DNA of 37,673 nucleotides, from assembly GCA_050485805.1 (NCBI GenBank), contig JBJHCB010000001.1, positions 1 through 37,673 of the forward strand, written 5' to 3'. The notes beneath the pieces are model-generated. The model was not told where the DNA came from and did not search any database. It saw only the letters and a program-made list of their open reading frames with translations. Numbering within the stretch: the first letter of the stretch is position 1; each line of letters starts with the position of its first letter. The translations under genes were made by a program, and so were the position numbers. This stretch comes from Gemmatimonadota bacterium (GTDB lineage: Bacteria; Gemmatimonadota; Gemmatimonadetes; Longimicrobiales; Gaopeijiaceae). Below are positions 2,411-27,664 of the stretch, in pieces.

Positions 2411-2661
2411 GGGGCTGTGGGCAGGGGCGGGGTGGAGGAGCGAACGAATCGGGAGAACCCGATGTACAATGGGCTGAAGGGGAGGGATCGGAACCATCCG
2501 GATCCCGGGGCTGCGGTGGAACCCATCCGGCTCCATGCCATGGAACCGGCCTCATGCGACGGGCCCATGTAACGGACGCCGGTCGCCGGCCCTCCCATCT
2601 CCATACACCGCCAGGGCACCCGCGTCCCCCTGGTGACCGGCCTCCGACTCTCGCCTGGTCC

Positions 2662-3867
2662 ATGATGGCACCCTGGGCTCCACCCGAACCTCCGTCGGCC
2701 GCATGCCCCCACGCCCCGCCTGGGGCGCGGCACGGCTCTCTTCCCCGGCCTGGAGGGAGACGCCCTGGCGTACCCGCCCCCCTCTTCCTCCTCCCCATCC
2801 TCCTTGCGGCCCCGCTCCTGTTCCCCGGGGCCGCGGGGGCCCAGGAAACGGGACTGGCCCGCCTGCCCGGCACGGCACTGGACGTGGTCCCGCCCTCGCA
2901 GTGGGCCCGGGGAGAGCCGGGACGGATGGCGGTGGAGCGACCCCGCTGCCGGGAGACGGGCCCTGGGGATCTCCGGCGTCGGATCGTGGACGTGGCGGTC
3001 CAGGAGTGGGGCTACTTCGGTTTTCCCGTCTTCGATCTGGAGGGGGGAGACCGCCTCCCCCCCGCCCTGGTCCGCTCCGGATCGGGAGGGGCCGCCTTCC
3101 AGCGGATTCCCCCGGGAAGGCGGGTACCCCTCCTCACCCCCGATGAGATGGCCCGGGCCGCTCCCACCATCGCCGGATACTGGGCAGCCACCCCCGAAGG
3201 ACCCGGGATCGTGCGGGAACAGAACGGCCGGTGGAACGGGCCCATGGGTCCCGGCGTGCGTTGGCGATACCCGTGGTCCGCCGCCTTCATCTCCTGGGTC
3301 ATGTGTGAATCGGGGGTGGAGGGGGCCGGAGGTTTCCGCTACGCCATCGCCCACTGGAGCTACATCGATCAGGCCATACGGGCCCGGGACGGAAGGGAGG
3401 CCGGTACTGCCTTTGTCGCCCACGACCTGGGAGAGGTCCCGGTGGAGCCCGGGGACCTGCTCTGCCAGTCCAACCGCCCTGCCTATCGGGCGCTGGCGGA
3501 GCGACGCCGGCAGCTGGGGGTCGGGGCCCGGAGCCACTGCGACGTGGTGGTGGAGGTGGACCCGGATGGCGGACGGATCCTGGCCGTGGGAGGCAACGTC
3601 CTGGGTGCAGTCACCCTCAAGGTGTTCCCGGCCCAGGGAGGCCCGAGTGGGCGCCTCGTTCCCGTGTCCGGCCAGGGCCGCCCGCTCTTCGCCCACCTGA
3701 AGCTCCGGGCGGAGCCCATGGGGAACGGTGCCCTTCGGAGCAGTCCCACCTTCCAGGGCGCCCGCTGCGCCGGGCCGGAGGCCTCCTCAGCCCGGATGGC
3801 ATGGGTGGCGGGTGAATTGGGGCTGGGGGGTCCGGCGCTCTCCACCCCGACGGCCGGAGCCTGCTGA
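2662..3867 (+). CDS. DUF2272 domain-containing secreted protein
   Basis: Track ORF 2161..3867 trimmed to the ATG at 2662, since the upstream part overlaps the divergent gene. Hydrophobic signal segment 'PLFLLPILLAAPLLFPGAAGAQ'. DUF2272-like core: 'YPWSAAFISWVM', 'IAHWSYI', 'GDLLC', 'HCDVVVEVD...ILAVGGNV'. Confidence 0.75.
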   Translation: MMAPWAPPEPPSAACPHAPPGARHGSLPRPGGRRPGVPAPLFLLPILLAAPLLFPGAAGAQETGLARLPGTALDVVPPSQWARGEPGRMAVERPRCRETGPGDLRRRIVDVAVQEWGYFGFPVFDLEGGDRLPPALVRSGSGGAAFQRIPPGRRVPLLTPDEMARAAPTIAGYWAATPEGPGIVREQNGRWNGPMGPGVRWRYPWSAAFISWVMCESGVEGAGGFRYAIAHWSYIDQAIRARDGREAGTAFVAHDLGEVPVEPGDLLCQSNRPAYRALAERRRQLGVGARSHCDVVVEVDPDGGRILAVGGNVLGAVTLKVFPAQGGPSGRLVPVSGQGRPLFAHLKLRAEPMGNGALRSSPTFQGARCAGPEASSARMAWVAGELGLGGPALSTPTAGAC

Positions 3868-5965: not shown

Positions 5966-6487
5966 ATGCGGGACCATCACGCCGAGCTTGACGACCTCTT
6001 CAGCCTCGCCTACGAGGAACTCCGGCGGCTTGCGACGCAGGTGCGGGGCAGCGGCGAGGGGGAGACCTTCCGTCCCACCGTTCTGGTCCATGAGGCATGG
6101 ATCCGGATGTCCGGATCCCCGGGGCTCGCCTCCCTCCCCCTCCCCCGGTTCAAACAGGTCGCCGCCAGGGCCATGCGCCAGGTTCTCGTGGACGCGGCCC
6201 GGCGGAGGAAGGCGGCGAAGCGGGGGGGAGGGACGGCACTGGTGACCTTCGACGAGTCCCTGGCCGCCGGGGAAAAGACCGTCCAGGAGGTGTTGGCGCT
6301 GGATCAGGCCCTCCAGGCCCTCTCGCTGCTGAGTCCACGGCAGGCCTCCCTGGTGGAGGCGCGCTTCTTCGGCGGTCTGGAGATGCGGGAGGTCGCCGAG
6401 GCACTGGAGATCTCCGAGGCCACGGCGCACCGGGACTGGCGCGCCGCCAGGGCGTGGTTGGCCCGGGAGCTCCAGGAAGCCCCGTGA
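5966..6487 (+). CDS. ECF-type RNA polymerase sigma factor (TIGR02999-like, kinase-associated)
   Basis: 173 aa. 'LAYEELRRLA', 'TVLVHEAWIRM' (region 2) and 'LSPRQASLVEARFFGGLEMREVAEALEISEATAHRDWRAARAWL' (region 4 HTH). Its stop overlaps the start of the downstream kinase. Confidence 0.85.
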   Translation: MRDHHAELDDLFSLAYEELRRLATQVRGSGEGETFRPTVLVHEAWIRMSGSPGLASLPLPRFKQVAARAMRQVLVDAARRRKAAKRGGGTALVTFDESLAAGEKTVQEVLALDQALQALSLLSPRQASLVEARFFGGLEMREVAEALEISEATAHRDWRAARAWLARELQEAP

Positions 6488-9300
6488 GTCCCGAGGAGGG
6501 GGAGGCAGCCGGCACGGAGGGCCCAACCCCAGAGCGGGAGGCTCCGGCTGGGGGGGACGACCGGAGGTGGGTCCGGGTGCAGGATCTCTTCCATGCGGCC
6601 CTGGAACGGGATCCCGGAGAACGCCCAGCCTTTGTGGAGACAGCCACCCGGGATGACCCCTCCATCAGGGCCGAGGTCCTGGACCTCCTGGCTGCCGACG
6701 AAGGGGGGTGGACCTTCCTGGACCGCGGCGTGGGATCCGTTGCGGATCGGATCCTGGACCCTCCCGCCCAGGGGAGCGGGGACACCTCCCCCCACTCCGG
6801 CGGCTCGGGGGAGGGCGCCACCCGGGGAGACGGACCCACCTTCGGGCCCTACCGCATCCTCTCCTTCCTGGGTGAGGGCGGGATGGGGACCGTCCACCGC
6901 GTGATCCGGGACGACCTGGGAAGCGAGGCGGCCCTGAAGATCCTCCGGGACGGCACCCTTTCGCCCGCCCGGCGAGCCCGCTTCCTGGCGGAGCAGCGCA
7001 CCCTGGCCGGCCTTCGCCACCCGGGGATCGCCCACCTCCTGGACGCGGGCGCCCTCCCCGACGGGACCCCCTGGTTCGTCATGGAGCTCGTGGAAGGCGC
7101 GCCCCTGGACGAGTACATCCGGCAGGCCGACCCCTCCCTGGAGGAGCGCCTCCTCCTCTTCCGCTCCGTGGCCGAGGTCGTCCAGCACGCCCACCGCCAC
7201 GCGGTGATCCATCGGGACCTCAAGCCGTCCAACATCCTGGTTGGGGAGGACGGCCAGGTGAAGGTCATCGACTTCGGGATCGCCAAGCGGCTGGGGCCGG
7301 AGGGCCAGCCCCCAAGGGAGGCCACCCGCACGGGGCTCCGCATCCTGACGCCGGCCCACGCGGCCCCGGAGCAGCTCCGGGGCGAAGCGGTGGGGGTCCA
7401 CACGGATGTCTATGCCCTGGGCGTCCTCCTCTTCCAGCTCCTCTCGGGACAGACCCCGTTCCTTGTGGAGGGCGGTTCGCTGGAGGAGGCGGCCGCGGTG
7501 AGGACGGCTGGGCCACCGCCCCGCCCCTCGGCGCTTCGCGTCCGGCACTCTCCAGGCTCCCTCGGATCGGAGGAGGGAGCCCGGAGCGATCCCGGTGCCC
7601 GGGGTAGCCCGGGCACGGGAACGTGGCGCTCCCACGCAGTCCCCCCGGTCCGGGGCGGCTCCCGCTCCGAGTGGGCCGACCTGGACGTCCTCTGCATGAC
7701 GGCCATGCACTCCGATCCACTCCGGCGGTACTCCACGGTGGAAGCCCTTCTCCGGGATCTGGAGCACTTCCTCCGCCGGGAGCCGCTGGAGGCCCGTCCC
7801 GACACCCTGGGCTACCGGGCCGGAACGTTCATGCGAAGGAACCGCACCCCGGTGGGGGTGGCGGCCGCCGCACTCCTGGTCCTGATGGCGAGCTCCGTCG
7901 CCTGGACCGTCTCGCTCCTGGACGCACGGGACCGGGCCCTGGCCGAGGCGGCCCGGGCGGAGCGGGTGCAGCGCTTCACCGTGAACCTCTTCCAGGGAAC
8001 GGACCCGGATTTCGCTCCTGCCGAGGCACTCCGGGTGGTGGAGCTCCTGGAGCGGGGGGTCCAGGAGGCCCGTGCCCTGGAGGCGGATCCGACCCTCCAG
8101 GCAGAGCTCTATCTGGCGCTGGGGGGGATCCATCACCAGCTGGGTCGGTTGGAGGCGGCGGACTCGCTCATCCAGGCGGCGCTGGAGCTGCGCCGCGGCC
8201 GCCGGGGCGGGGAGCACCCGGAGGTGGCCGAGGCGCTCGTGGCGCTGGGGCTGGTGAAGGAGGCCCAGGCCTCCCTCGACGAGGCCGAAGCCCTTGCCCG
8301 GGAGGGCCTGGAGATGACCCTCCGGACGCTCCCCGACCGGCACCCGGGTCGGGCTCGTGCGTTGGCTGCGCTGGGAGGGGTCCTGGAGGCACGGGGTCGC
8401 TACGACGAGGCCCTTCCCCTGGTCGAGGAGGCCGTCCACCTGCACCGCCTCCGGGGGGACCCCGGGGCAGAACTGGCGTCGGCCCTGGGGCAGCTCGTGA
8501 ACCTGAACTTCTACCTGGGCCGCTACCCGCAGGCCGACTCCCTGGGATGGGAGGCCCTTTCCCTCAACCGAAAGCTCTACGGCGAGACCCATCCGGCAGC
8601 CGCCCGGGACCTCATCAACCTGGGGGCGGTGGCCTTCGAGCTGGGGGATGCCCACCGGGCGGAGGAGCTGTTCAGGGAGGCGCTGTCCATCCAGGAGCCG
8701 TGGTACGGTCTCGAGCACCCGGCCACCGCGGCGAATCTGACCATGTTGGGGCGGGCGCTGGTTCGGCAGGAGCGGATGGACGAAGCCACGCAGGTGCTCC
8801 GCACCTCCCTCGCCATCAACCGGGAGACGCTGGGGGAGGTCCACCCTCGGGTGGCCTCGGCGGAGAACGAGCTGGGCCTCATCGCCCAGGCCGCAGGCGA
8901 CTGGGCGGAGGCCCGGAATCACTTCCTCCGCATGACGGCGATCTACGAGGCACTGTACCCGGAGGGTCACTCCTGGGTGGGGGTGGCCCGCTCGAACCTG
9001 GCCGGGACCCACCAGGCGGAGGGCAACCATGGGGAGGCCGAGCGGCTCCTCCGGGAGGTCCTGGAGATGTACGGCCGGATCCTTCCGGAGGGACACCAGT
9101 TGGCGGGGATCGCATGGATCCGCCTCGGAAGCGCACTGGTGGCCCAGGAGCGGTTCCAGGAGGGCCTGGAGGCCCTCCTGTCGGGGCGGGAGATCCTGAC
9201 CGTCCAGGGAGCAAGTCCCGTCTGGGTGGAACGGGCCGACCAGGAGCTGGACCGGGCCCGGGCAGGACTTCGCGGCGAGCCCCCGGAGGCCAGCCGATGA
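6484..9300 (+). CDS. Membrane Ser/Thr protein kinase with C-terminal TPR-repeat domain
   Basis: Track ORF 6097..9300 trimmed to the in-frame GTG at 6484, which overlaps the sigma-factor TGA (GTGA). Hanks motifs are present: 'LGEGGMGTV', 'ALKIL', 'HRDLKPSNIL', 'DFGIAK', 'APE'. One TM helix, 'VGVAAAALLVLMASSVAWTV', is followed by about 400 aa of TPR-like repeats ('LG..Y...G.Y.EA..L...AL'). Confidence 0.85.
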   Translation: MSPEEGEAAGTEGPTPEREAPAGGDDRRWVRVQDLFHAALERDPGERPAFVETATRDDPSIRAEVLDLLAADEGGWTFLDRGVGSVADRILDPPAQGSGDTSPHSGGSGEGATRGDGPTFGPYRILSFLGEGGMGTVHRVIRDDLGSEAALKILRDGTLSPARRARFLAEQRTLAGLRHPGIAHLLDAGALPDGTPWFVMELVEGAPLDEYIRQADPSLEERLLLFRSVAEVVQHAHRHAVIHRDLKPSNILVGEDGQVKVIDFGIAKRLGPEGQPPREATRTGLRILTPAHAAPEQLRGEAVGVHTDVYALGVLLFQLLSGQTPFLVEGGSLEEAAAVRTAGPPPRPSALRVRHSPGSLGSEEGARSDPGARGSPGTGTWRSHAVPPVRGGSRSEWADLDVLCMTAMHSDPLRRYSTVEALLRDLEHFLRREPLEARPDTLGYRAGTFMRRNRTPVGVAAAALLVLMASSVAWTVSLLDARDRALAEAARAERVQRFTVNLFQGTDPDFAPAEALRVVELLERGVQEARALEADPTLQAELYLALGGIHHQLGRLEAADSLIQAALELRRGRRGGEHPEVAEALVALGLVKEAQASLDEAEALAREGLEMTLRTLPDRHPGRARALAALGGVLEARGRYDEALPLVEEAVHLHRLRGDPGAELASALGQLVNLNFYLGRYPQADSLGWEALSLNRKLYGETHPAAARDLINLGAVAFELGDAHRAEELFREALSIQEPWYGLEHPATAANLTMLGRALVRQERMDEATQVLRTSLAINRETLGEVHPRVASAENELGLIAQAAGDWAEARNHFLRMTAIYEALYPEGHSWVGVARSNLAGTHQAEGNHGEAERLLREVLEMYGRILPEGHQLAGIAWIRLGSALVAQERFQEGLEALLSGREILTVQGASPVWVERADQELDRARAGLRGEPPEASR

Positions 9301-19061: not shown

Positions 19062-21653
19062 TCACATCCGCCCCATCCGCCCCATCCTTCCAAGGACGGC
19101 CGCCACCTCGGGATGTGCGTCGGGGTGATGGTCCGCGAGGATCCGGAGTGCGGCCTGGAACTCCTCCCGGGCGGCCCCTTCCTTCCCCTGTAGCCGGAGG
19201 ATCTCCCCGAGCTCCGCCCTCCCCACCGCCACGATGGGGGCGGTGGGCCCGAAGAGTCGGGCCCGGGACGCCAGGGCTCGCCGTTGCGCGGCCTCCGCCT
19301 CCTCCAGGCGGCCGGCGCTCGTGGAGATGGCCGCCAGGGACACCAGGGCCGAAGCCACCGAGGGATGCTCGGAGCCCAGGGTCGCCTCCCGGATCCGGAG
19401 CACCTGTTCCGTCAGGGCAAAGGCCTCCTCGAAGCGGCCCTGTCGGGCACGTGCCTCCACGGTCCTCCGCAGGGACTCCGTACCGCCCAGGGAGCCCTCC
19501 CCGAAGACCACGTCCGAGACGGCCACCGCCTCCCGGAGGAGCGCCTCCTCCGCTTCCCGGTCACCCAGGGCCCCGAGGAGGTCGGCCAGACTGTGGAGGC
19601 CGTGGAGGCGTTCCGGACGGAGCTGGCCCAGATGGGACTCCTGGAGCGCCAGCCCCTCCCGGTAGAGGGCCTCCGCCTCTTCCATCTCCCCTCGGTGCAC
19701 CCGGAGCAGATCTCCCAGGTGGAACATTCCCTTGGCCAACCCGGCGGGATCCTGCGGTTCGGCCGCCCTCCGCAGTGCCAGCGCCTCCCGCCAGAGCCCT
19801 TCGGCCTCATCGATCCGGCCCTCCCGCCTCCGGACCGAGGCCACCAGGTCCATGGCCCGGGTGGTGGCGGGGTGATGGGGGCCGAGGGCTTCGCGGCGGA
19901 TGGCCAGCGCTTCCTGGAAGATGGGGCCGGCCTGGGGCGGATCCGGGGCAAGGGCGCGACCCAACGCCTCGAGGGCATCGGCCACCTGGGGATGCCGCTC
20001 CCCCTGGGCCCCGCGGCGCAGCGCCACCCCGACCTCCAGGAGCGGGACGGCCATGCCGGACTCCCCCCGACCCCCGTGCACGCCGGCCACGGCCTCCAGG
20101 AGCCGGGCCTTCAGGAGCGGGTGGTCCGCCAGGAGGCGCGCCTGGGCGGCGGCCTCCTCCAGGACGGTGGCGCCGGCGAGCCGGGAGTCCGAGGTCCGCT
20201 CCGGGTGGCTCGCCTGGATGAGCCCCAGGAGGGAGGCCGTGACCTGCTCCGCCCGTTCCGCCTCCCGGTCCGCCGCCTCCAGCGCCTCGGACAATCGGGC
20301 GGTGTGGAGGGTGAGGGTGACGGCGTACCCCCCCAGGAGAAGCAGGACGAGGGAGAGGGTCGCCACAGGGAGGGCGTTCCGGCGCAGGAACCGCCCGGTG
20401 CGATAGAGGGGCAGGTGGCCCCGGGCCTCCACCGGTCGGCGCGACCGATGCCGCTCCAGGTCCTCCACCAGGGCCTCCACGGATGGGTACCGCTCCTCCG
20501 CGTGGAATCGGAGCGCCTTCCCCATGATGCTCTCCAGGTCCCCCCCGATCCTCCGTCCCAGTCGACCCGGGGTGGTTGCCCGCATCCAGGCGATCTCCCG
20601 GGGGTCCGGCCTGGCACCCGTGGCTTCCCGACGGGAGGGCCAGACCCCCGTGAGGAGGCCGCGCAGGAGGACTCCCAACTGGTAGACGTCGGACCCGGTT
20701 CCCACCGGCTCCCCTCGGCGTTGCTCCGGGCTGGCGAAAGCGGGCGTAAGGAAGGGGGATCGCGGGGGATGCCCTCCGAGCCCCTCGGGGCCCCCTCTCC
20801 CGCGCCCCTCGAGCGGCTCGAGCGCCCGCGCGATCCCGAAGTCCACGAGGTGGACCTCGCCCGGCTCGGCCGACCGGGAGGCCGGAGGAGTGACCAGGAT
20901 GTTGCCGGGTTTCAGATCCCCGTGCACCACCAGGTTCCGGTGGGCGTGGGCCACCGCCCGGGCCACGGTGAGGAAGAGGCGGATCCGGCCGTCCACGGGC
21001 AGTCGGCGGGCGTCGCAGAACGCATCGATGGGTTCGCCCGGCACGAACTCCATGGCGAACCAGAGCCGGCCTTCCGCCGTGGTGCCGCCATCCAGGAGGC
21101 GGGCGATGCTGGGATGCGTGAGGGAAGCGAGGATCTGTCGCTCGGTCCGGAACCGGTCCAGGATCGGGGCCAGGTCCAGTCCGCTCCGGAGGACCTTGAG
21201 GGCCACCCGCCGACGGAACGCACCGTCGGCCCGTTCCGCGAGGAACACCGTCCCCATGCCGCCCTCGCCGACGAGGCGCAGGAGTCGGTAGGGACCCACC
21301 GGGTCTCCGGGGCGGGCCTCCCCCGGGCCGGGGCCCGGGCCCCCATCCGGCCCGCGCTCCTCCAGGTCCGCCAGGAGTTCCGGGGCCGCCGCGCCGACCC
21401 CTGACTCCAGGAACGCCCCGGCCCCCCGGGCCGCCTCGACGAGGCGCCGCAGCTCCTGCCCCAGGTCCGGATCCAGGCGGGCCCCGTCCCCTGGGTCGGG
21501 CGTCGGCGGGGGGGAGTCCTGCGTCGACGCGTGGGAGTCCTGCCTTGACCGATGGGAGTCGGGAGCGAGGTCCTGGCCCGGATCCGTGAGGGGTTCCGAA
21601 AGGTGCTCCTCCAGGAGCCCTCGAAGTCGGATCCAACGGCCCTTGGCGTCCAT
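19062..21653 (-). CDS. Membrane Ser/Thr protein kinase with C-terminal TPR-repeat domain (paralogue of 6484..9300)
   Basis: 863 aa. 'VGEGGMGTV', 'ALKVL', 'HGDLKPGNILV' (Gly replaces the Arg of HRD), 'DFGIAR', 'SPE'. TM helix 'LPVATLSLVLLLLGGYAVTLTL', then a TPR-like region. The start lies 9 nt after the stop of the upstream sigma gene. Confidence 0.85.
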   Translation of the reverse strand: MDAKGRWIRLRGLLEEHLSEPLTDPGQDLAPDSHRSRQDSHASTQDSPPPTPDPGDGARLDPDLGQELRRLVEAARGAGAFLESGVGAAAPELLADLEERGPDGGPGPGPGEARPGDPVGPYRLLRLVGEGGMGTVFLAERADGAFRRRVALKVLRSGLDLAPILDRFRTERQILASLTHPSIARLLDGGTTAEGRLWFAMEFVPGEPIDAFCDARRLPVDGRIRLFLTVARAVAHAHRNLVVHGDLKPGNILVTPPASRSAEPGEVHLVDFGIARALEPLEGRGRGGPEGLGGHPPRSPFLTPAFASPEQRRGEPVGTGSDVYQLGVLLRGLLTGVWPSRREATGARPDPREIAWMRATTPGRLGRRIGGDLESIMGKALRFHAEERYPSVEALVEDLERHRSRRPVEARGHLPLYRTGRFLRRNALPVATLSLVLLLLGGYAVTLTLHTARLSEALEAADREAERAEQVTASLLGLIQASHPERTSDSRLAGATVLEEAAAQARLLADHPLLKARLLEAVAGVHGGRGESGMAVPLLEVGVALRRGAQGERHPQVADALEALGRALAPDPPQAGPIFQEALAIRREALGPHHPATTRAMDLVASVRRREGRIDEAEGLWREALALRRAAEPQDPAGLAKGMFHLGDLLRVHRGEMEEAEALYREGLALQESHLGQLRPERLHGLHSLADLLGALGDREAEEALLREAVAVSDVVFGEGSLGGTESLRRTVEARARQGRFEEAFALTEQVLRIREATLGSEHPSVASALVSLAAISTSAGRLEEAEAAQRRALASRARLFGPTAPIVAVGRAELGEILRLQGKEGAAREEFQAALRILADHHPDAHPEVAAVLGRMGRMGRM
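19066..19088. repeat. 9-bp microsatellite (CATCCGCCC) x ~2.5 at the 3' end of kinase 2
   Basis: catccgccc catccgccc catcc, read directly. It encodes the C-terminal GRMGRMGRM immediately before the stop codon. Confidence 0.85.
21512..21574. repeat. Imperfect 21-bp tandem repeat (about 2.3 units) in the 5' part of the kinase 2 CDS
   Basis: gggagtcctgcgtcgacgcgt and gggagtcctgccttgaccgat (16/21 identical), followed by gggagtc... On the minus strand this encodes DSHRSRQ / DSHASTQ / DSPP. Confidence 0.7.
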
Positions 21654-21662
21654 GGGGGCGGC

Positions 21663-22256
21663 TCAGGAGGGGCGTGTCGGCGGGGGACGCAACTCCAGCT
21701 CCCTGGCCAGGAATGCCCGTGCCACCCGGGTATGGCGCTTCACCGTGGCCGTGGAGAGACCGAGGATCCGGGCCACGTCGTCCACCGGAGCGTCGCCGAA
21801 GAAGCGGAGCTCTGCCAGGCGGGCCAGACCGGGGTCCAGGGTCTCCAGGCGCTCCAACGCCTGATCCAGCGCCAGCACGGCGACCGCCTGTCGGTCCGGA
21901 TCCGTGGAGCCCCCGGTCAGGGCCTCCAGGGACACCCGGACCCGCTCGCCCCCGCGCTTCTCCGCCATGCGCCGACGGGCGTGATCCACCACCACCTGCC
22001 TCATGGCCATGGACGCCACCGAGAGGAAGTGGTCCCGGTCGGCGAAGGGACCGCCGGCACTCCGGGCCAGCTTGAGCCAGGTCTCGTGGACGAGGGCGGT
22101 GGTGGAGAGCGTCTCGCCGGGCGATCGCCGGCGCCGGTGGACCCGGGCCAGGCGCTTCAGTTCCCGGTACACCAGGGGCAGGAGGACGTCCATGGCCACC
22201 CCGGGGGTGGCCGGACGCCTCGAAGGCGGAGAACTGGGAGCCGGTGCCGTGTCCAC
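21663..22256 (-). CDS. ECF-type RNA polymerase sigma factor (TIGR02999-like, kinase-associated)
   Basis: The GTG at 22256 has AGGAG 6 nt upstream. The ATG at 22193 (MDVLLPLVY) is an alternative. 'LLPLVYRELKRLA', 'TALVHETWLKL', 'LAELRFFGDAPVDDVARILGLSTATVKRHTRVARAFL'. Confidence 0.85.
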   Translation of the reverse strand: MDTAPAPSSPPSRRPATPGVAMDVLLPLVYRELKRLARVHRRRRSPGETLSTTALVHETWLKLARSAGGPFADRDHFLSVASMAMRQVVVDHARRRMAEKRGGERVRVSLEALTGGSTDPDRQAVAVLALDQALERLETLDPGLARLAELRFFGDAPVDDVARILGLSTATVKRHTRVARAFLARELELRPPPTRPS

Positions 22257-22459: not shown

Positions 22460-23479
22460 ATGTCGGAGCCAAGGATCCAATCCGTCCTCCCCCGCAGGGC
22501 CTTCCTGCGTTCCGGAACCGCTGCCCTCCTGGGCGGCGCCCTCGTTCCCGCCGGTCTGGCCGGGACCCCCGTCCTTCGCCGTTCCGGACCTCCCGGCGCG
22601 GGAGCGGGAAGGTGGCGGGATCCTTGGACCTACCGCTTCCGCATGGGGGACTGGACCCTCACGGTCCTGGGCGACGGGTTCTTCCACCTCCCTTCCGAGA
22701 TCTTCGGCGCCGACGTGTCCCGGGAGGAAAGGGAGGCCTACTACCGCTCGCGTTTCCTCCCCACCGATGCCGTTCGCCTGCCGGTGAACCCGCTCCTCAT
22801 CGAGACCGGGACGCGGACGGTTCTGGTGGACGCCGGAACCGGCGCGCCCCCCTCACCGGAGGAGACCACGGGGCATCTCCCGGCCTCCCTGGCCGCAGCG
22901 GGTGTGGACCCGGCCGAGGTGGACCTCGTCCTCCTCACCCACGCCCATGGGGATCACCTGGGGGGGCTCGTGGACGCAGCCTCCGGGGCACCCCGCTTCC
23001 CCAACGCCGAGGTGGTGCTGTCGGGGACGGAGTATGACACATGGGGCGCCTCCGACGCCCGCGCCCGGATGCCGGAATGGGTCAACGAGGCGGGGTTGGT
23101 GGAAGTGGCCCAGCAGGTCTTCAGCGCCCTGGGCGACCGGATCCGCACGGTTCCCATGGACGGGGAGGTGACGGCGGGGATCCGGAGCGTGTCCGCCCCG
23201 GGTCACACCCCCGGACACATCGGCTTCGTGCTCACCTCCGGCGGCCAGGACCTCCTCCTGGTGGGGGACGCCGTGGCCAACACCCACACCCAGATGGAGC
23301 GCCCGGACTGGCACCTGGCCTTCGATCTGGACATGCCCCAGGGCTCCCGGACCCGAAGGCGCCTTCTGGAGCGGGCGAACGGCGACCGCATGCTGATCCA
23401 CGGGTTCCACCTCCCCTATCCCGGTCTGGGCTACGCCGTGCGGGAGGGGGACGCCTTCCGCTGGGTGCCCACGGGGTAG
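22460..23479 (+). CDS. Tat-exported MBL-fold metallo-hydrolase
   Basis: The ATG has GGAGG 7 nt upstream. Twin-arginine signal 'LPRRAFLRSG'. 'LLTHAHGDHLGG' (HxHxDH), 'APGHTPGH', 'HGFH'. Confidence 0.85.
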   Translation: MSEPRIQSVLPRRAFLRSGTAALLGGALVPAGLAGTPVLRRSGPPGAGAGRWRDPWTYRFRMGDWTLTVLGDGFFHLPSEIFGADVSREEREAYYRSRFLPTDAVRLPVNPLLIETGTRTVLVDAGTGAPPSPEETTGHLPASLAAAGVDPAEVDLVLLTHAHGDHLGGLVDAASGAPRFPNAEVVLSGTEYDTWGASDARARMPEWVNEAGLVEVAQQVFSALGDRIRTVPMDGEVTAGIRSVSAPGHTPGHIGFVLTSGGQDLLLVGDAVANTHTQMERPDWHLAFDLDMPQGSRTRRRLLERANGDRMLIHGFHLPYPGLGYAVREGDAFRWVPTG

Positions 23480-23708
23480 GCGCGGGGTCGGGAGTCGACC
23501 CGGGCTCCCGTCGCCCCGCGACTCCTGCGTTCCGCCGGGGAGCGGGCATTCCGCGAGCCCCTCCGGAGCCCGGAGCTCCGCCTGGATCCTGTGGTTTCGC
23601 CCGGTGGCGACCCGGGGAGCGGGTGGTACGCGCTTTGCAATGGTGTGCGGGCACCGGCGCCCTGGAGGCGCCCCCACCCCCGCCCACGAACCAACGAAAG
23701 GCCGATGC

Positions 23709-24326
23709 ATGTCCGGCCCGACCCTTTTCCGGCCAGACGCCCCGGGTGGGGAGCGCAGGGGACGTGCGTCACCCCTCCTCCCCTCCCGTGAGGTCCTCGA
23801 GGCCCTGGACCTGGTCCTGTCCAAGGGGAGGGTGGAACTCCAACCCCTGCCCGGCGGGGAACGGGGGGAGCTGATGGTGGAGGTGGGCGGGCACGTCGTC
23901 ATCCTCCATCCTCGCCGACGCGGGATCCGGGTGGTGTCCCAGGGTGTGGATCGGGCCCGCCGCTGGTGTGCCCGCCTTTCCGGGTTGGGCGCGGTCCTCC
24001 TCGGGACCGCCTGGGTGATGGTGGGGGTCTCCATCCTGGTCGGAGCATCCCTCCGCCCCGGGACCCTCGTGGGAACGGCCGCCGTGATCCTCTTCATCTT
24101 GCCCCTGGGGCTTTCACTCCCCCTGTCTCGGCGGGTCGTGGAGGTGGATCCGGAACAGGAGATTCCAGGACGGGTGGAGGCGGCCCTCCGAAGCGCCCTG
24201 GAGCTGGAAGCCACGCCACGGGCTACCCCCTGGGCCACCCCACATGGGGCGCCACCCGCCACGCCTCGCGCCACCGCCGGTGCCACCCCACGCGCCACCC
24301 CGCGCCATCCGGCCACCCAGCGCTGA
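23709..24326 (+). CDS. Two-TM hypothetical membrane protein with C-terminal (ATPR)n tail
   Basis: Track ORF 23604..24326. The ATG at 23709 (MSGPTLF...) is preferred, with GAAAGG about 9 nt upstream. The ATG at 23640 is an alternative. An ~85-aa soluble N-terminal domain is followed by 'LSGLGAVLLGTAWVMVGVSILVG' and 'LVGTAAVILFILPLGLSL'. Third codon positions are G/C-rich. No family recognised. Confidence 0.6.
   Translation: MSGPTLFRPDAPGGERRGRASPLLPSREVLEALDLVLSKGRVELQPLPGGERGELMVEVGGHVVILHPRRRGIRVVSQGVDRARRWCARLSGLGAVLLGTAWVMVGVSILVGASLRPGTLVGTAAVILFILPLGLSLPLSRRVVEVDPEQEIPGRVEAALRSALELEATPRATPWATPHGAPPATPRATAGATPRATPRHPATQR
24210..24305. repeat. 12-bp-period in-frame tandem repeat (8 units), encoding ATPR-like tetrapeptides
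   Basis: The codon quartets read ATPR ATPW ATPH GAPP ATPR ATAG ATPR ATPR (gccacSccNcgN units), at the 3' end of CDS 23709..24326. Confidence 0.8.
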
Positions 24327-24478
24327 AGAGCGTTGCGCGCTCCTGCGCACCGCGGCACGTTGGACGGTGCGCAGCCGGTCGTGGTGGAGTGTGCCTTGGA
24401 CGCCGGTCTGGTTCCGGGCCTGCCTGCCGGGGTGGGCCGGGCCTGCTCCCCACCCTCACCGTCACGCTGGAAACCGGA

Positions 24479-25459
24479 ATGAAGGACGGGATCGCGGTGG
24501 AGATCGATGCGGCGGACGCCCTGTCGGTGGACGCCGATGTCCTCGCGCTCAAGTACGCCCAGGGCTTTCACGGGGCCGACCGCGCAGTCGCGGAGCGGCT
24601 GGAGATGGATCTCCCCGGCATCGAGCTTCCCGTGGGAGACCACCTCTTCGTCCCATCGGGCGGGAGACTCGCCGCGGAATCCGTGCTCTTCCTGGGGGTC
24701 CCGCCCCTGTATCTCCTGGATTACGAAGCGATCCGGGCCTTCGCGCGGGGTGTGCTCTCGGCCCTCTCCACGCGGGCCCCGGAAGCAGAACGGCTCTGCA
24801 TCACGCTTCATGGGCCGAACGTCGGCCTCGACGAAAGGGAGTCGTTCAAGGCGCAGATCGCCGGGCTCCTGGATGCGGTGGAGGCCGGGGAGCATCCCCG
24901 GTCCCTGAAGCGCATCTTCATGGCCGAGATCGACGCGCTGCGCGTGGTGCGACTGCGACCGGTCCTCGACCAGTTGCTCCCCGGGGGGCGGATCGAGTCC
25001 CGTGATCGGTTCCACCTCGCCGGCGCGGCGGGAGAGGCGGTGGCCACCCTCAGGAGCGTGGGCCGGGACTCGAGAGCGAAGCCCCTGGCCTTCGTGGCCA
25101 TGCCCTTCGCCCCGGAGTACGACGACCACTTCCACTACGGGATCCAGGGAGCGGCCCACGCCGCCGGCTTCCTCTGCGAGCGTGCGGACTTCACTTCCTT
25201 CACCGGCAATGTGATGGACTGGGTGCGAGGCCGGATCGGTGCTGCGCAGATCGTGATCGCGGACCTCAGCTCCGCGAACCCCAATGTCTACCTGGAGGTG
25301 GGGTATGCGTGGGGCCGCGAGATCCCCACGGTTCTCCTCGTCCGGGACGCCAAGGAGCTGCAGTTCAACGTCCAGGGGCAGCGCTGTCTGACCTACTCCA
25401 GCATCCAGGACCTGGAAGAGACGCTGGGGCGGGAGTTGAAGGCGCTACGGGATCGCTGA
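24479..25459 (+). CDS. Fusion protein: N-terminal Macro-fold-like domain + C-terminal nucleoside 2-deoxyribosyltransferase/TIR-like domain
   Basis: Track ORF 23966..25459 trimmed to the ATG at 24479 (MKDGIAVEID...). C-terminal domain (residues ~200-310): 'PLAFVAMPF', 'AQIVIADLSSANPNVYLEVGYAWGREIPTVLLV'. This matches the beta1 'FxxxPF' and 'D-x7-8-N-V-x-x-E-x-G-Y-A-x-G-x-x-P-x-x-L' pattern of NDT/DNPH1-like and related TIR-like Rossmannoid domains (Glu codon 25295-25297). N-terminal domain (residues ~1-135): 'DADVLALKYAQGFHGADRAVAE', 'VLFLGVPP', 'CITLHGPNVGLDE'. These follow the strand/loop order of Macro or M17-N-type Macro-fold domains. That assignment is by eye and tentative. Confidence 0.65.
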   Translation: MKDGIAVEIDAADALSVDADVLALKYAQGFHGADRAVAERLEMDLPGIELPVGDHLFVPSGGRLAAESVLFLGVPPLYLLDYEAIRAFARGVLSALSTRAPEAERLCITLHGPNVGLDERESFKAQIAGLLDAVEAGEHPRSLKRIFMAEIDALRVVRLRPVLDQLLPGGRIESRDRFHLAGAAGEAVATLRSVGRDSRAKPLAFVAMPFAPEYDDHFHYGIQGAAHAAGFLCERADFTSFTGNVMDWVRGRIGAAQIVIADLSSANPNVYLEVGYAWGREIPTVLLVRDAKELQFNVQGQRCLTYSSIQDLEETLGRELKALRDR

Positions 25460-25555
25460 AGAGCCTCCCTACCGGCCACGCGCCCAAACGGGTAGGAGGG
25501 GTCCGTAGGCCGCCGTGCCCCCACCCGCCCCTGCGGGCCCGAGCCGAGCGCCTCC

Positions 25556-27664
25556 CTAAAGCGCCTGCCGGACGCCCACCTCGAAGCCTCGCCCCGGCCC
25601 CACGTAGATGCCCTGGCGGAGCCCGGTGATGTACCGGGCGTCGGTGACGTTCTTCAGCGCACCGAACACCGAGAGCGACCCGGTCGCCTCCCACTGCGCC
25701 GTGAGGTCGAACACCGTGTAGGCGGGCATGAGGCCACCCCAGATTCCTCCGGCCGCGTTGACCGGGATCTCCCGCAGGTTGGTCTCGTCGCCGAACTGCC
25801 CGCCCCTGTGGTGGACGAGCACGCTGGAGCGCAGGGGACCGTGCCGGAGATCCAGCGCCAGGTTGGCGAGGACGCGGGGGGCATAGGGAATGCGATTGCC
25901 TGCACTCTCCCCCGACTCGAAGCGCGAGACGGGGACCCATGTGACGTTCCCCGAGAGGCCGAGTCCCTCGGCCAGCCGGTACCCCAGGCCGAGCTCAGCC
26001 CCCTGGTGCAGGGTCTCGCCGGCGTTGGATCGCGAGAGGGTGGGATCGGAGTTCCCGGTGACCACCTGGTTCCGGAAGTCCAGGCGGAACAGCGCGAGCT
26101 CGTAATCGAGGGCACCCCGTGTCCCACGGATCCCCACCTCGAGGTTGGTGGAGCGCTCAGCCTCGAGGAGCTGATCCGTCATCCCGTCCAGGGCCACGCC
26201 GTTGGTGGCGGGAGAGAAGGCGCGGTACACGCCCCCGTACAACTGTGCGGAGGGAGTGAGGGCGTAGGTCGTGCCGACGCCGGGAAGGAGCTCGGTGTTG
26301 GAGGTCTCGGCCGTGTCGTCGTTGCTGGTGAGCACGCGCCGCTTCTGCCCATAGGTCTCCAGACGGACGCCGGGGGTCAGGGCGAACCGATCCGAGAACT
26401 GGACGCGGTTGTGGATGTGGAAGGCCATGCTGGTGGCGGAGTCCACAAGGTGCCGGTCGTTGAGACCCGTGCGGTCCTGGGTGCGGTCGGCCCGGATGCG
26501 CCGGTCGTCCGACTCCTCGTAGAAGCCGCGCACGCCGATCTCGGCGTCGCTGTCAAGCCCGAGCAGCCCGTGATCGAACTTGAGGCGGGTGTCGACCCCG
26601 TACCGGTCAAAGGATCGGTTGTTGCCGGTCAAGGCGTCCGTGTACACCCAGCGCCCGGCGGCATTCGACGCCTGCGTGTCGACATCGTAGCGCCAATAGT
26701 CCCGGGTGAGGGTGCTCCAGTACGCCACGCTCGTCAGTGTGGCGCCCGGACCGATGTCGAAGCGATGGTTCAGGTCCAGGGAGGTGCGGTCCGTGAGGTA
26801 CCAGTCGTCGGGGGCCGGATTGTACGTGGCACCCGCGCGGTATTCATCGAACAGGAGCCCCCGGTAGGAGATGTTGGCGTCGTTCTCGTACCAGGAGAGC
26901 TTGACCCCAAGCCGATGCCGATCACCGACGGCGAAACCGGCCTTCGCCATCACGTCGTTCATCTCGTACCCCTTGTCCATGAAGCCCCGCCCACGGGCGT
27001 GGGTGGCCACGACGCCCCCGTACGCGGCGCCGCTCCCGCTGCGCGCACCGGCCTCGACCATCAACTCCCGGGTATCGAAGGAACCGGTCCGGGCCGAGAT
27101 GAGAAGGCCTTCGGCAGGCGTCTTGGTGAGGAAGTTCACGACTCCGCCGATGGTGGAGGGGCCGAACCGCAGGGAGGAGGAGCCCTTCAGGACCTCGATC
27201 CGTTCGATCCGCTGGATACGGGGATTGAAGTAGCGATCATTTCCGATCAGCAGACCGGGGGCCACGGGCACCCCGTCCTCCAGAAGCAGGGACTTCGCCT
27301 CGCTCGAAGAGAGACCCCGCAACCCGATGTTCGAGACGATGGCGGTCTCCTCCTCCGTCTTGGTGTTGACCCCGGGCAGGCGGCGCAGCGCGTCTTCCGT
27401 GGAGATCGCTTGCAGCCCCTCCAACTCCTCCCTGCTCACGATCTGCACGGTCCCGGTCTGCCGAAGCACCGAGCCCGGACTGCGGCCGATCACTTCGATG
27501 ACGGGCAACTCCACGACGGCCGGCAACTCCACCGGGGCCTCCTGAGGCGCCTCCTGCGAGGTCTGGGCTTGCGCGAGGACGGCTCCCGGCACCAGCGCCA
27601 GGACGGTGGCAACCAACCATCGGGGGAGGAGCATTCGGCGGGAACGCATTCGGGAACTCGTCAT
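25556..27664 (-). CDS. TonB-dependent outer-membrane receptor
   Basis: 702 aa. Signal peptide 'LVATVLALVPGAVLAQA'. Plug motifs 'VIEVIGRS', 'VQIVSREELEGLQAISTEDALRRLPGVNT', 'IGLRGL', 'LLLEDGVPV'. A long beta-barrel with 'YGGVYRAFSPAT' and C-terminal strands. Confidence 0.9.
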   Translation of the reverse strand: MTSSRMRSRRMLLPRWLVATVLALVPGAVLAQAQTSQEAPQEAPVELPAVVELPVIEVIGRSPGSVLRQTGTVQIVSREELEGLQAISTEDALRRLPGVNTKTEEETAIVSNIGLRGLSSSEAKSLLLEDGVPVAPGLLIGNDRYFNPRIQRIERIEVLKGSSSLRFGPSTIGGVVNFLTKTPAEGLLISARTGSFDTRELMVEAGARSGSGAAYGGVVATHARGRGFMDKGYEMNDVMAKAGFAVGDRHRLGVKLSWYENDANISYRGLLFDEYRAGATYNPAPDDWYLTDRTSLDLNHRFDIGPGATLTSVAYWSTLTRDYWRYDVDTQASNAAGRWVYTDALTGNNRSFDRYGVDTRLKFDHGLLGLDSDAEIGVRGFYEESDDRRIRADRTQDRTGLNDRHLVDSATSMAFHIHNRVQFSDRFALTPGVRLETYGQKRRVLTSNDDTAETSNTELLPGVGTTYALTPSAQLYGGVYRAFSPATNGVALDGMTDQLLEAERSTNLEVGIRGTRGALDYELALFRLDFRNQVVTGNSDPTLSRSNAGETLHQGAELGLGYRLAEGLGLSGNVTWVPVSRFESGESAGNRIPYAPRVLANLALDLRHGPLRSSVLVHHRGGQFGDETNLREIPVNAAGGIWGGLMPAYTVFDLTAQWEATGSLSVFGALKNVTDARYITGLRQGIYVGPGRGFEVGVRQAL

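Follow-up and report, generated by a model that had tools for sequence, protein, structure and literature searches.

The locus described here raises two questions: what is the role of a 326-amino-acid (aa) protein in which a Macro-like domain is fused to a nucleoside 2-deoxyribosyltransferase (NDT)-like domain, and does this protein act together with a small protein with two transmembrane segments (2-TM) that is encoded just upstream of it? Both genes lie in a 37,673-nucleotide (nt) stretch of DNA, here called the window, from a Gemmatimonadota bacterium (Longimicrobiales, Gaopeijiaceae; assembly GCA_050485805.1, contig JBJHCB010000001.1, positions 1 to 37,673 of the forward strand). The original prediction, made from the sequence alone, had viewed the two genes as a dedicated cassette and as a candidate nucleotide/NAD-centred conflict (defence or toxin) module. 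With slightly less than even confidence, we tentatively read the window gene as a solitary member of a family used as effector of NAD+/ADP-ribose-centred immune systems, and we infer that it would act as a macro-gated N-glycosidase.

An AlphaFold2 (AF2) model of the protein, computed from a 40-sequence alignment, reached a predicted local distance difference test (pLDDT) value of 86.3 and a predicted template-modelling score (pTM) of 0.87, and consists of two domains and a linker (Table 1). In the linker the pLDDT is ~62 over residues 171-190 and <50 at 176-179, and this region is variable in the homologue alignment. When compared with the PDB using Foldseek, the N-terminal half matched macroH2A1.1, E. 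coli YmdB, MacroD1, OiMacroD and PARP14, and also the macro-like N-domain of leucine aminopeptidase; the macro matches had E values of 1e-5 to 1e-7, TM(target) values of 0.65-0.75 and a root-mean-square deviation of ~3.3 A over ~170 columns. The Macro-like N-terminus that had been proposed was thus recovered by structure comparison, while Pfam Macro gave no match for the window protein at E<=1. An hhalign comparison of the family with E. coli YmdB was colinear over 153 columns with the macro motifs aligned, but had an E value of 0.076. The YmdB and family motifs pair as 'VDVIVNAAN' with 'ADVLALKYAQ', 'GVDGAI' with 'GVDxAV', 'VVHTVGP' with 'VLFVGVxP' and 'PAISTGVYGYP' with 'TIHGPGYGLDE', the YmdB segment 'aFPaIStGvYGyP' corresponding to 'ALTIHGPGYGLDE' in the family. 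Weak matches to Peptidase_M17_N were also seen in the N-terminal domain of relatives.

Conservation was counted over 151 non-identical family sequences. The predicted pocket for an ADP-ribose (ADPR)-type ligand comprises D20, K25, G32, D34 and T109-H111-G112-x-x-x-G116-L117-D118-E119-x-E121, in which D20, K25, G32, D34, T109, H111, G112, G116, D118, E119 and E121 are each kept in >=97% of sequences. The fold and the colinear motifs are common to the family and to MacroD-type proteins (YmdB, human MacroD1, OiMacroD), whereas loop 1 of the family has three residues fewer and no GGG, and the Pfam Macro model is not matched. We describe the N-terminal domain as MacroD-like, with ligands of the ADP-ribose type as its predicted binding partners or substrates. 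The window protein itself carries N114 (codon 24818-24820) in the 'GPGYG' loop, where 127 of the 151 family members have G.

The C-terminal part (residues 185-326) was modelled separately with a pLDDT of 83.7. Its highest-ranking PDB matches were Chroococcidiopsis NDT, DNPH1/Rcl and the CMP N-glycosidase BcmB (TM 0.6-0.75), and TIR-STING, plant TIRs and SARM1 were matched as well; among BFVD structures the top match was a CAP12/Pycsar TIR protein, accompanied by hmCMP hydrolases and phage NDTs. These matches bear out the NDT/TIR-like C-terminus of the original prediction. The Pfam family PF05014 scored 20 bits (E=8e-4) on the window protein, below its gathering cut-off of 28.8 bits; among 40 long relatives, 20 matched it with E<=1e-3, the best of them at 3.9e-10, and it is a precomputed annotation in a few members. 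Residues 253-315 matched positions 301-366 of the 388-position PADLOC model PDLC00733 (CBASS effector 'TIR') with an E value of 3.6e-11. NCBIfam returned nothing for the window proteins, and in sequence searches of the PDB neither the single sequence nor the profile produced a significant match.

The strings on which the earlier assignment had leaned, 'AFVAMPF' and 'IVIADLSSANPNVYLEVGYAWGREIPTVLL', are both present in the product, and so is the proposed catalytic residue E273, which is invariant in all 151 sequences. In a weak alignment of the family profile with the PDB (E=0.38), the segment '..NPNVYLEVGYAWG' lies opposite 'PGTHVEIGWASG' of MilB and places E273 on the Glu of 'HVEIG'. The metabolic enzymes NDT, DNPH1 (Rcl) and MilB-BcmB (PF05014, clan Nribosyltransf, 'DrHyd') have in common with the family the fold and, as seen with MilB, the Glu motif; after strand 1 the family has 'FVAMPF', at the place where NDT has 'YxAGPxF'. 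They differ from it in that the window protein stays below the Pfam cut-off, and in that the family domain is joined to a macro partner and occurs in immune rather than metabolic contexts. We regard the C-terminal domain as NDT/DNPH1 ('DrHyd')/TIR-like, with the invariant Glu as predicted N-glycosidase nucleophile. Because E273 is invariant and the pocket residues are so highly conserved, both domains look ligand-competent, as judged from residue conservation. The window copy, with N244 in place of the consensus Asp and with N114, may be attenuated or altered in specificity.

The protein belongs to a large, so far unnamed and uncharacterised family that occurs across many phyla. A word-indexed search of 90%-identity clusters gave at least 1,984 relatives; among the matches listed (120), all were annotated as 'hypothetical', the query was covered by >=94% at ~50% identity, most proteins were ~330 aa long and three carried C-terminal extensions. 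An exhaustive search gave 404 representatives of 50%-identity clusters with E<=1e-30, a number that rose to 8,933 when the limit was E<=1e-3. The distribution is sparse, with members in 315 of 185,579 GTDB species representatives (0.17%), and takes in Acidobacteriota, Cyanobacteria, Chloroflexota, Planctomycetota, Bacteroidota, Proteobacteria, Actinoplanes, Gemmatimonadota and others, with star-like pairwise identities of ~50%. In the literature we found no description of a Macro+NDT fusion family. A tblastn search of phages and plasmids gave no full-length member, only stand-alone or differently fused relatives of the C-terminal domain. Without the macro partner, the domain occurs in a 219-aa protein of Staphylococcus phage vB_SauS_Mh1 (L169 2983-3642), encoded antisense to the replication module as a 'moron' in phietaviruses, and in ~300-aa proteins on Bacillus mycoides and Serratia plasmids (L170 3641-4594; L171 3509-4384); all of these match PDLC00733. 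Agrobacterium plasmids carry the domain in another architecture as well.

The association of the family with immunity comes from what its members are fused to and what they are encoded beside. Around 77% of representatives are solitary, while N-terminal extensions of >=80 aa are present in 31 of the top 150 and a TIR domain precedes the module in ~12% of representatives. Pfam searches of 40 long variants identified TIR_2 in 18, TIR in 9, CAP12-TIR in 5, ThsB_TIR in 4, EAD7 in 3, CHAT in 2, and DUF4062, EAD1, EAD11, bDLD1, HD and astacin in one each. In one TIR-Macro-NDT open reading frame (ORF; L043), the TIR part matches the PADLOC ThsB model. Genes for TIR proteins also lie within 1.5 kb of the family gene at 7 of 80 genome loci, where the density of TIR ORFs is 2.07 per 100 kb against ~0.5 per 100 kb at 1.5-8 kb, and one further long variant lies upstream of a TIR gene. 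The adjacent TIR proteins vary in architecture (SIR2-TIR, TIR-TPR, Zn-ribbon-TIR and others) and come from unrelated lineages. Members linked to a TIR are dispersed over the family, which implies that the associations are independent. A CHAT-Macro-NDT protein of 741 aa is encoded 0.65 kb downstream of an nSTAND1-WD40 gene (L175 1360-5688), and the two form a candidate STAND/caspase-like conflict system that uses the module.

Published work gives these partners a context. EAD1, EAD7 and bDLD are described as adaptors for the recruitment of effectors, and DRHyd and Macro are listed among the NAD+-linked domains of these systems (PMC7159879). In ThsA, the macro domains bind ADPR or imidazole adenine dinucleotide (IAD) and form oligomers (PMC11204291). 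Retron Ec86 has an NDT-like effector that depletes the cell of NAD+ and adenine nucleotides (PMC13276650; bioRxiv 10.1101/2023.08.16.553469). DrHyd domains serve as NADase effectors, and macro domains in TIR systems are predicted to target cyclic ADP-ribose (cADPR) (PMC9503650). With TIR, EAD, death-like and CHAT domains repeatedly fused to the module and TIR genes beside it, there is good evidence for a family-level link to NAD+/nucleotide-centred immune (conflict) systems, although most copies are solitary. The conflict module that had been proposed is thus supported for the family, but the window locus itself lies outside any recognisable defence island.

Some long variants and loci deserve mention in their own right. 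Variants of 564-567 aa (P0053, P0110 and P0117) end in an astacin-like domain of ~230 aa with a degenerate metal motif, 'HQFGRAIGLEPEH'. Insertion sequence (IS) elements, toxin-antitoxin components and Mrr are found near some family loci; one gene for an astacin-like variant (L082 8001-9704) has genes for IS66 transposase, BrnT toxin and Mrr endonuclease around it. An ORF of ~85 aa matching PF09720 (Unstab_antitox) directly follows the family gene, at ~69% identity, in a Nostocales genome and soil-metagenome contigs (L006, ~9.0-9.3 kb; L083, 7200-7451; also L084 and L085). The two may be a co-transferred pair, a hint of toxin-antitoxin-like control in some lineages.

The family resembles the Thoeris- and CBASS-type proteins that combine a sensor domain with a NAD/nucleotide effector, in a new architecture. 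Like ThsA of Thoeris (TM-macro in type II, SIR2-SLOG in type I), it would join a sensor of a NAD+-derived signal and an effector in one protein; the macro fold is the ADPR-type sensor there (PMC11204291), and TIR/ThsB-like domains recur as neighbours or fusion partners of the family. The family effector, however, is NDT/DrHyd-like rather than TM helices or SIR2, most copies including that of the window lack a linked TIR, and many TIR partners are fused in cis. The PADLOC ThsA models did not match the window protein at E<=1, and a locally built TIR profile found no TIR ORF in the 37.7-kb window, so that the linked ThsB required in Thoeris is missing. With the effector of retron Ec86 (Retron-Eco1), an abortive-infection effector, the family has in common an NDT fold with a catalytic-type Glu, whereas the regulatory module here is the N-terminal macro domain. 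The window locus has no reverse transcriptase among the flanking genes and no match to a retron model, including those for retron effectors; a search for the non-coding RNA (msr/msd) was not made. In comparison with the TIR-like effectors of CBASS and Pycsar (Cap12/PycTIR), the C-terminal 65 residues match PDLC00733 and the first-ranked BFVD structure is of this type, but only the C-terminal part of that model is matched and the N-terminal domain of the family is macro, not SAVED, STING or TM. No CD-NTase or cyclase was among the PADLOC matches listed for the window, and the adjoining genes encode a metallo-beta-lactamase (MBL)-fold hydrolase, the 2-TM orphan and a TonB receptor. Near the locus a STAND gene was looked for in vain, and the window protein has no N-terminal extension, which sets it apart from the EAD/STAND-type conflict systems (Kaur et al. 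2020) that some relatives resemble.

Under the reading that we favour, an ADPR-type molecule would arise during infection, made by a TIR or another NADase either in cis (in the fusions) or in trans (for the solitary copies). The macro domain would bind this molecule, and binding would switch on the C-terminal domain, probably by oligomerisation. Through E273 the C-terminal domain would then break the N-glycosidic bond in NAD+ or in a nucleotide, and depletion of the essential metabolite would lead to cell arrest. A bolder form of this proposal, possible but on balance unlikely, is that the solitary copies work on their own as N-glycosidase effectors gated by ADPR. They would act in trans, set off by ADP-ribose-type molecules from any NAD+-cleaving immune system (TIR, SIR2) or from phage ADP-ribosyltransferases. 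They would then form a second line of effectors that is shared, one-protein relatives of Thoeris with new effector chemistry, and the TIR-Macro-NDT fusions would represent a self-contained version, either ancestral or derived.

Several observations weigh against an immune effector. The window copy is solitary and surrounded by housekeeping-type genes, and it has N244 where 147 of 151 relatives have D. Most family loci have no TIR or other defence gene nearby, the immediate neighbours being mostly housekeeping genes (polyprenyl synthetase, transporters, glycosidases, tRNA synthetase), and any enrichment of PADLOC matches in immediate neighbours over the distal control was weak or unclear, in an underpowered comparison. 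Copies in Anaerolineales are vertically inherited within a conserved housekeeping neighbourhood, sequence conservation is unusually high for a defence gene, and a scan of IMG/VR found no family homologue. Finally, the assignment of sensing to one domain and acting to the other is one that we infer.

Much of this would suit a housekeeping or salvage enzyme without an immune role, in which the macro domain processes an ADPR metabolite (O-acetyl-ADPR, ADPR-1''-phosphate) and the NDT/DNPH1/LOG-like domain hydrolyses a nucleotide or nucleoside in NAD/nucleotide turnover or detoxification. The mostly housekeeping neighbours, in the window too, the stable synteny in Anaerolineales, the strong conservation and the lack of viral copies in IMG/VR all argue for it, as does the fact that the nearest solved folds (NDT, DNPH1, MilB/BcmB, YmdB) are metabolic. 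Such an enzyme would not, however, be expected to be fused recurrently to TIR, EAD, death-like and CHAT domains or to lie beside TIR and STAND genes; moreover, the 167 family loci compared have no conserved metabolic operon, and the very sparse occurrence over many phyla resembles horizontal gene transfer. We judge this explanation unlikely.

A rather improbable account is that the protein is a signal-clearing regulator, which would degrade TIR-derived ADPR-type messengers through a macro hydrolase and an N-glycosidase and so set the threshold of immunity or reset it, in the manner of ring nucleases in type III CRISPR. In the 'GVD' motif D34 falls on the Asp that is catalytic in hydrolases of the MacroD type, catalytic-type residues are kept in both domains, the family is associated with TIR genes, and the predicted targeting of cADPR by macro domains of TIR systems (PMC9503650) would fit. 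Yet the 'N-x6-GGG' part of the MacroD loop is absent, most copies have no linked TIR gene, and the EAD7, EAD1 and bDLD fusions suggest recruited effectors and not regulators (PMC7159879).

The roles might also be reversed, with Macro-NDT serving as a ligand sensor or oligomerisation scaffold that activates a fused TIR, CHAT or other effector, and with the solitary copies as sponge, decoy or remnants. An N-terminal TIR on a ligand-binding module mirrors TIR-STING and TIR-SAVED, the former being among the structural matches; CHAT, HD and astacin-like domains are fused to the module as well, and the D244N change of the window copy points the same way. This strikes us as highly doubtful, since E273 and the catalytic-type motif around it are invariant in solitary copies too, the solitary majority is under strong constraint, and fusion to EADs implies that what is recruited as the effector is the module (PMC7159879).

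The features of the locus are collected in Table 1.

Table 1. Coordinates of the fusion gene, its domains and residues of interest, and the neighbouring genes in the window
Feature	Coordinates	Strand	Description and evidence
Fusion gene (real feature)	24479..25459	+	326-aa Macro-like + NDT/DrHyd-like two-domain product; ORF and translation
N-terminal macro-fold domain	24479..24988	+	residues 1-170; Foldseek vs PDB
Interdomain linker, low confidence	24989..25078	+	residues ~171-200; AF2 pLDDT, alignment variability
C-terminal NDT/DNPH1/MilB/TIR-like Rossmannoid domain	25079..25456	+	residues ~201-326; Foldseek vs PDB/BFVD
N244 codon	25208..25210	+	departs from consensus Asp ('FTGD'); D in 147/151 family members
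E273 codon	25295..25297	+	putative N-glycosidic-bond nucleophile; invariant in 151/151 family sequences
2-TM orphan gene	23709..24326	+	205 aa; upstream neighbour, membership of feature not supported
12-nt tandem repeat (CCACGCGCCACC x4.5)	24252..24305	+	Tandem Repeats Finder; encodes ATPR-rich (P/T/R) tail of 2-TM protein
MBL-fold hydrolase	22460..23479		upstream flank; RRxFL (twin-arginine) signal
TonB-dependent receptor	25556..27664		downstream flank; convergent

Both genes and both flanks were found as had been described, and the start codons of the two genes are supported by the N-termini of homologues. The window has a base composition of ~71% G+C, and the G+C content at third codon positions (GC3) is 0.87 in the fusion gene against 0.64 in its upstream in-frame extension. 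Because of this contrast and the homologue N-termini, two longer overlapping ORFs, a GTG-extended one of 497 aa (23966..) and an antisense one of 768 aa (22853..25159), were rejected as shadow ORFs. A scan of 23300-25800 for promoters and terminators found no site, including in the 152-nt spacer; this spacer holds a 23-nt direct repeat (x1.9) at 24402-24446.

Farther out, the window encodes an ECF sigma factor, a Ser/Thr kinase-TPR protein, a PAS histidine kinase, a molybdopterin oxidoreductase and QueG, and nothing resembling a mobile element or defence island was seen among the genes around the locus. A PADLOC scan of 24 window ORFs (E<=1e-4) returned kinase-domain models only, among the best 25 of 37 matched families. 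Many of these matches (PD-T4-6, mad6, PglW, MkoA) fall on two Ser/Thr kinase genes at 6097-9300 and 19062-22256, one of them paired with an ECF sigma factor; they were read as generic kinase-domain similarity rather than as a sign of a defence system. The upstream MBL hydrolase has a weak precomputed match to PF23023 (Anti-Pycsar Apyc1), which in a protein with a twin-arginine signal probably reflects generic MBL-fold similarity, and an identity as Apyc1 was rejected.

The 2-TM protein agrees with its original description in having two hydrophobic segments and a repetitive P/T/R tail that stems from the 12-nt repeat. It has no Pfam, PADLOC or NCBIfam match and a single homologue (P0122) in 5.8 billion clusters, with 70% identity over 69% of the query. 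The 2-TM gene and that of P0122 show 38/34/59 differences by codon position, and given this third-position excess the ORF is consistent with a real but fast-evolving gene; the repeat tail, in which GC3 drops to 0.73, is missing in P0122. The contig of P0122 (L001, gene 2519-3109) and the window's own short contig (L173) both come from run SRR31311414, so that P0122 is either a paralogue or from a sister strain. On its contig no family motif was found, in any frame, in the 285 nt downstream.

The cassette itself did not survive the synteny comparison. All-vs-all clustering of flanking ORFs, over 80 and then 167 family loci, gave no conserved neighbour. The top clusters consisted of shadow ORFs or of generic families (ABC, kinase), or else reflected vertical synteny in closely related Anaerolineales. 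Small 2-TM proteins as a recurrent upstream neighbour were likewise ruled out, as they occur in 3 of 79 loci (the window being one of these) against a background of 3%. That the two genes form a dedicated system, with the 2-TM protein serving Macro-NDT as membrane anchor, sensor or pore partner, is thus scarcely probable: the genes are co-directional and closely spaced with no terminator-like site between them, the arrangement recurs in the sample's own 4.9-kb contig and TM-macro ThsA effectors exist (PMC11204291), but the one homologue, the empty 285 nt beyond it, the lack of any conserved neighbour, the background frequency and the unconserved tail all argue against it. The 2-TM gene is a lineage-specific orphan, adjacent by chance and outside any conserved system, and the record for the locus is corrected accordingly: any annotation of a system here should leave this gene out.

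The window locus itself adds no system context, and it is the family that deserves experiments. None of the full-length PADLOC-2023 or Pfam models matches this family of 404 clusters at 50% identity. If the proposal holds, a single protein of ~330 aa would offer a tractable means to study how a macro domain gates an enzyme and which signals of the ADPR type circulate in cells without a linked TIR. Should the family work as we propose, a widespread unnamed effector architecture, a macro sensor with an NDT/DrHyd N-glycosidase, would join NAD+/ADP-ribose immunity.

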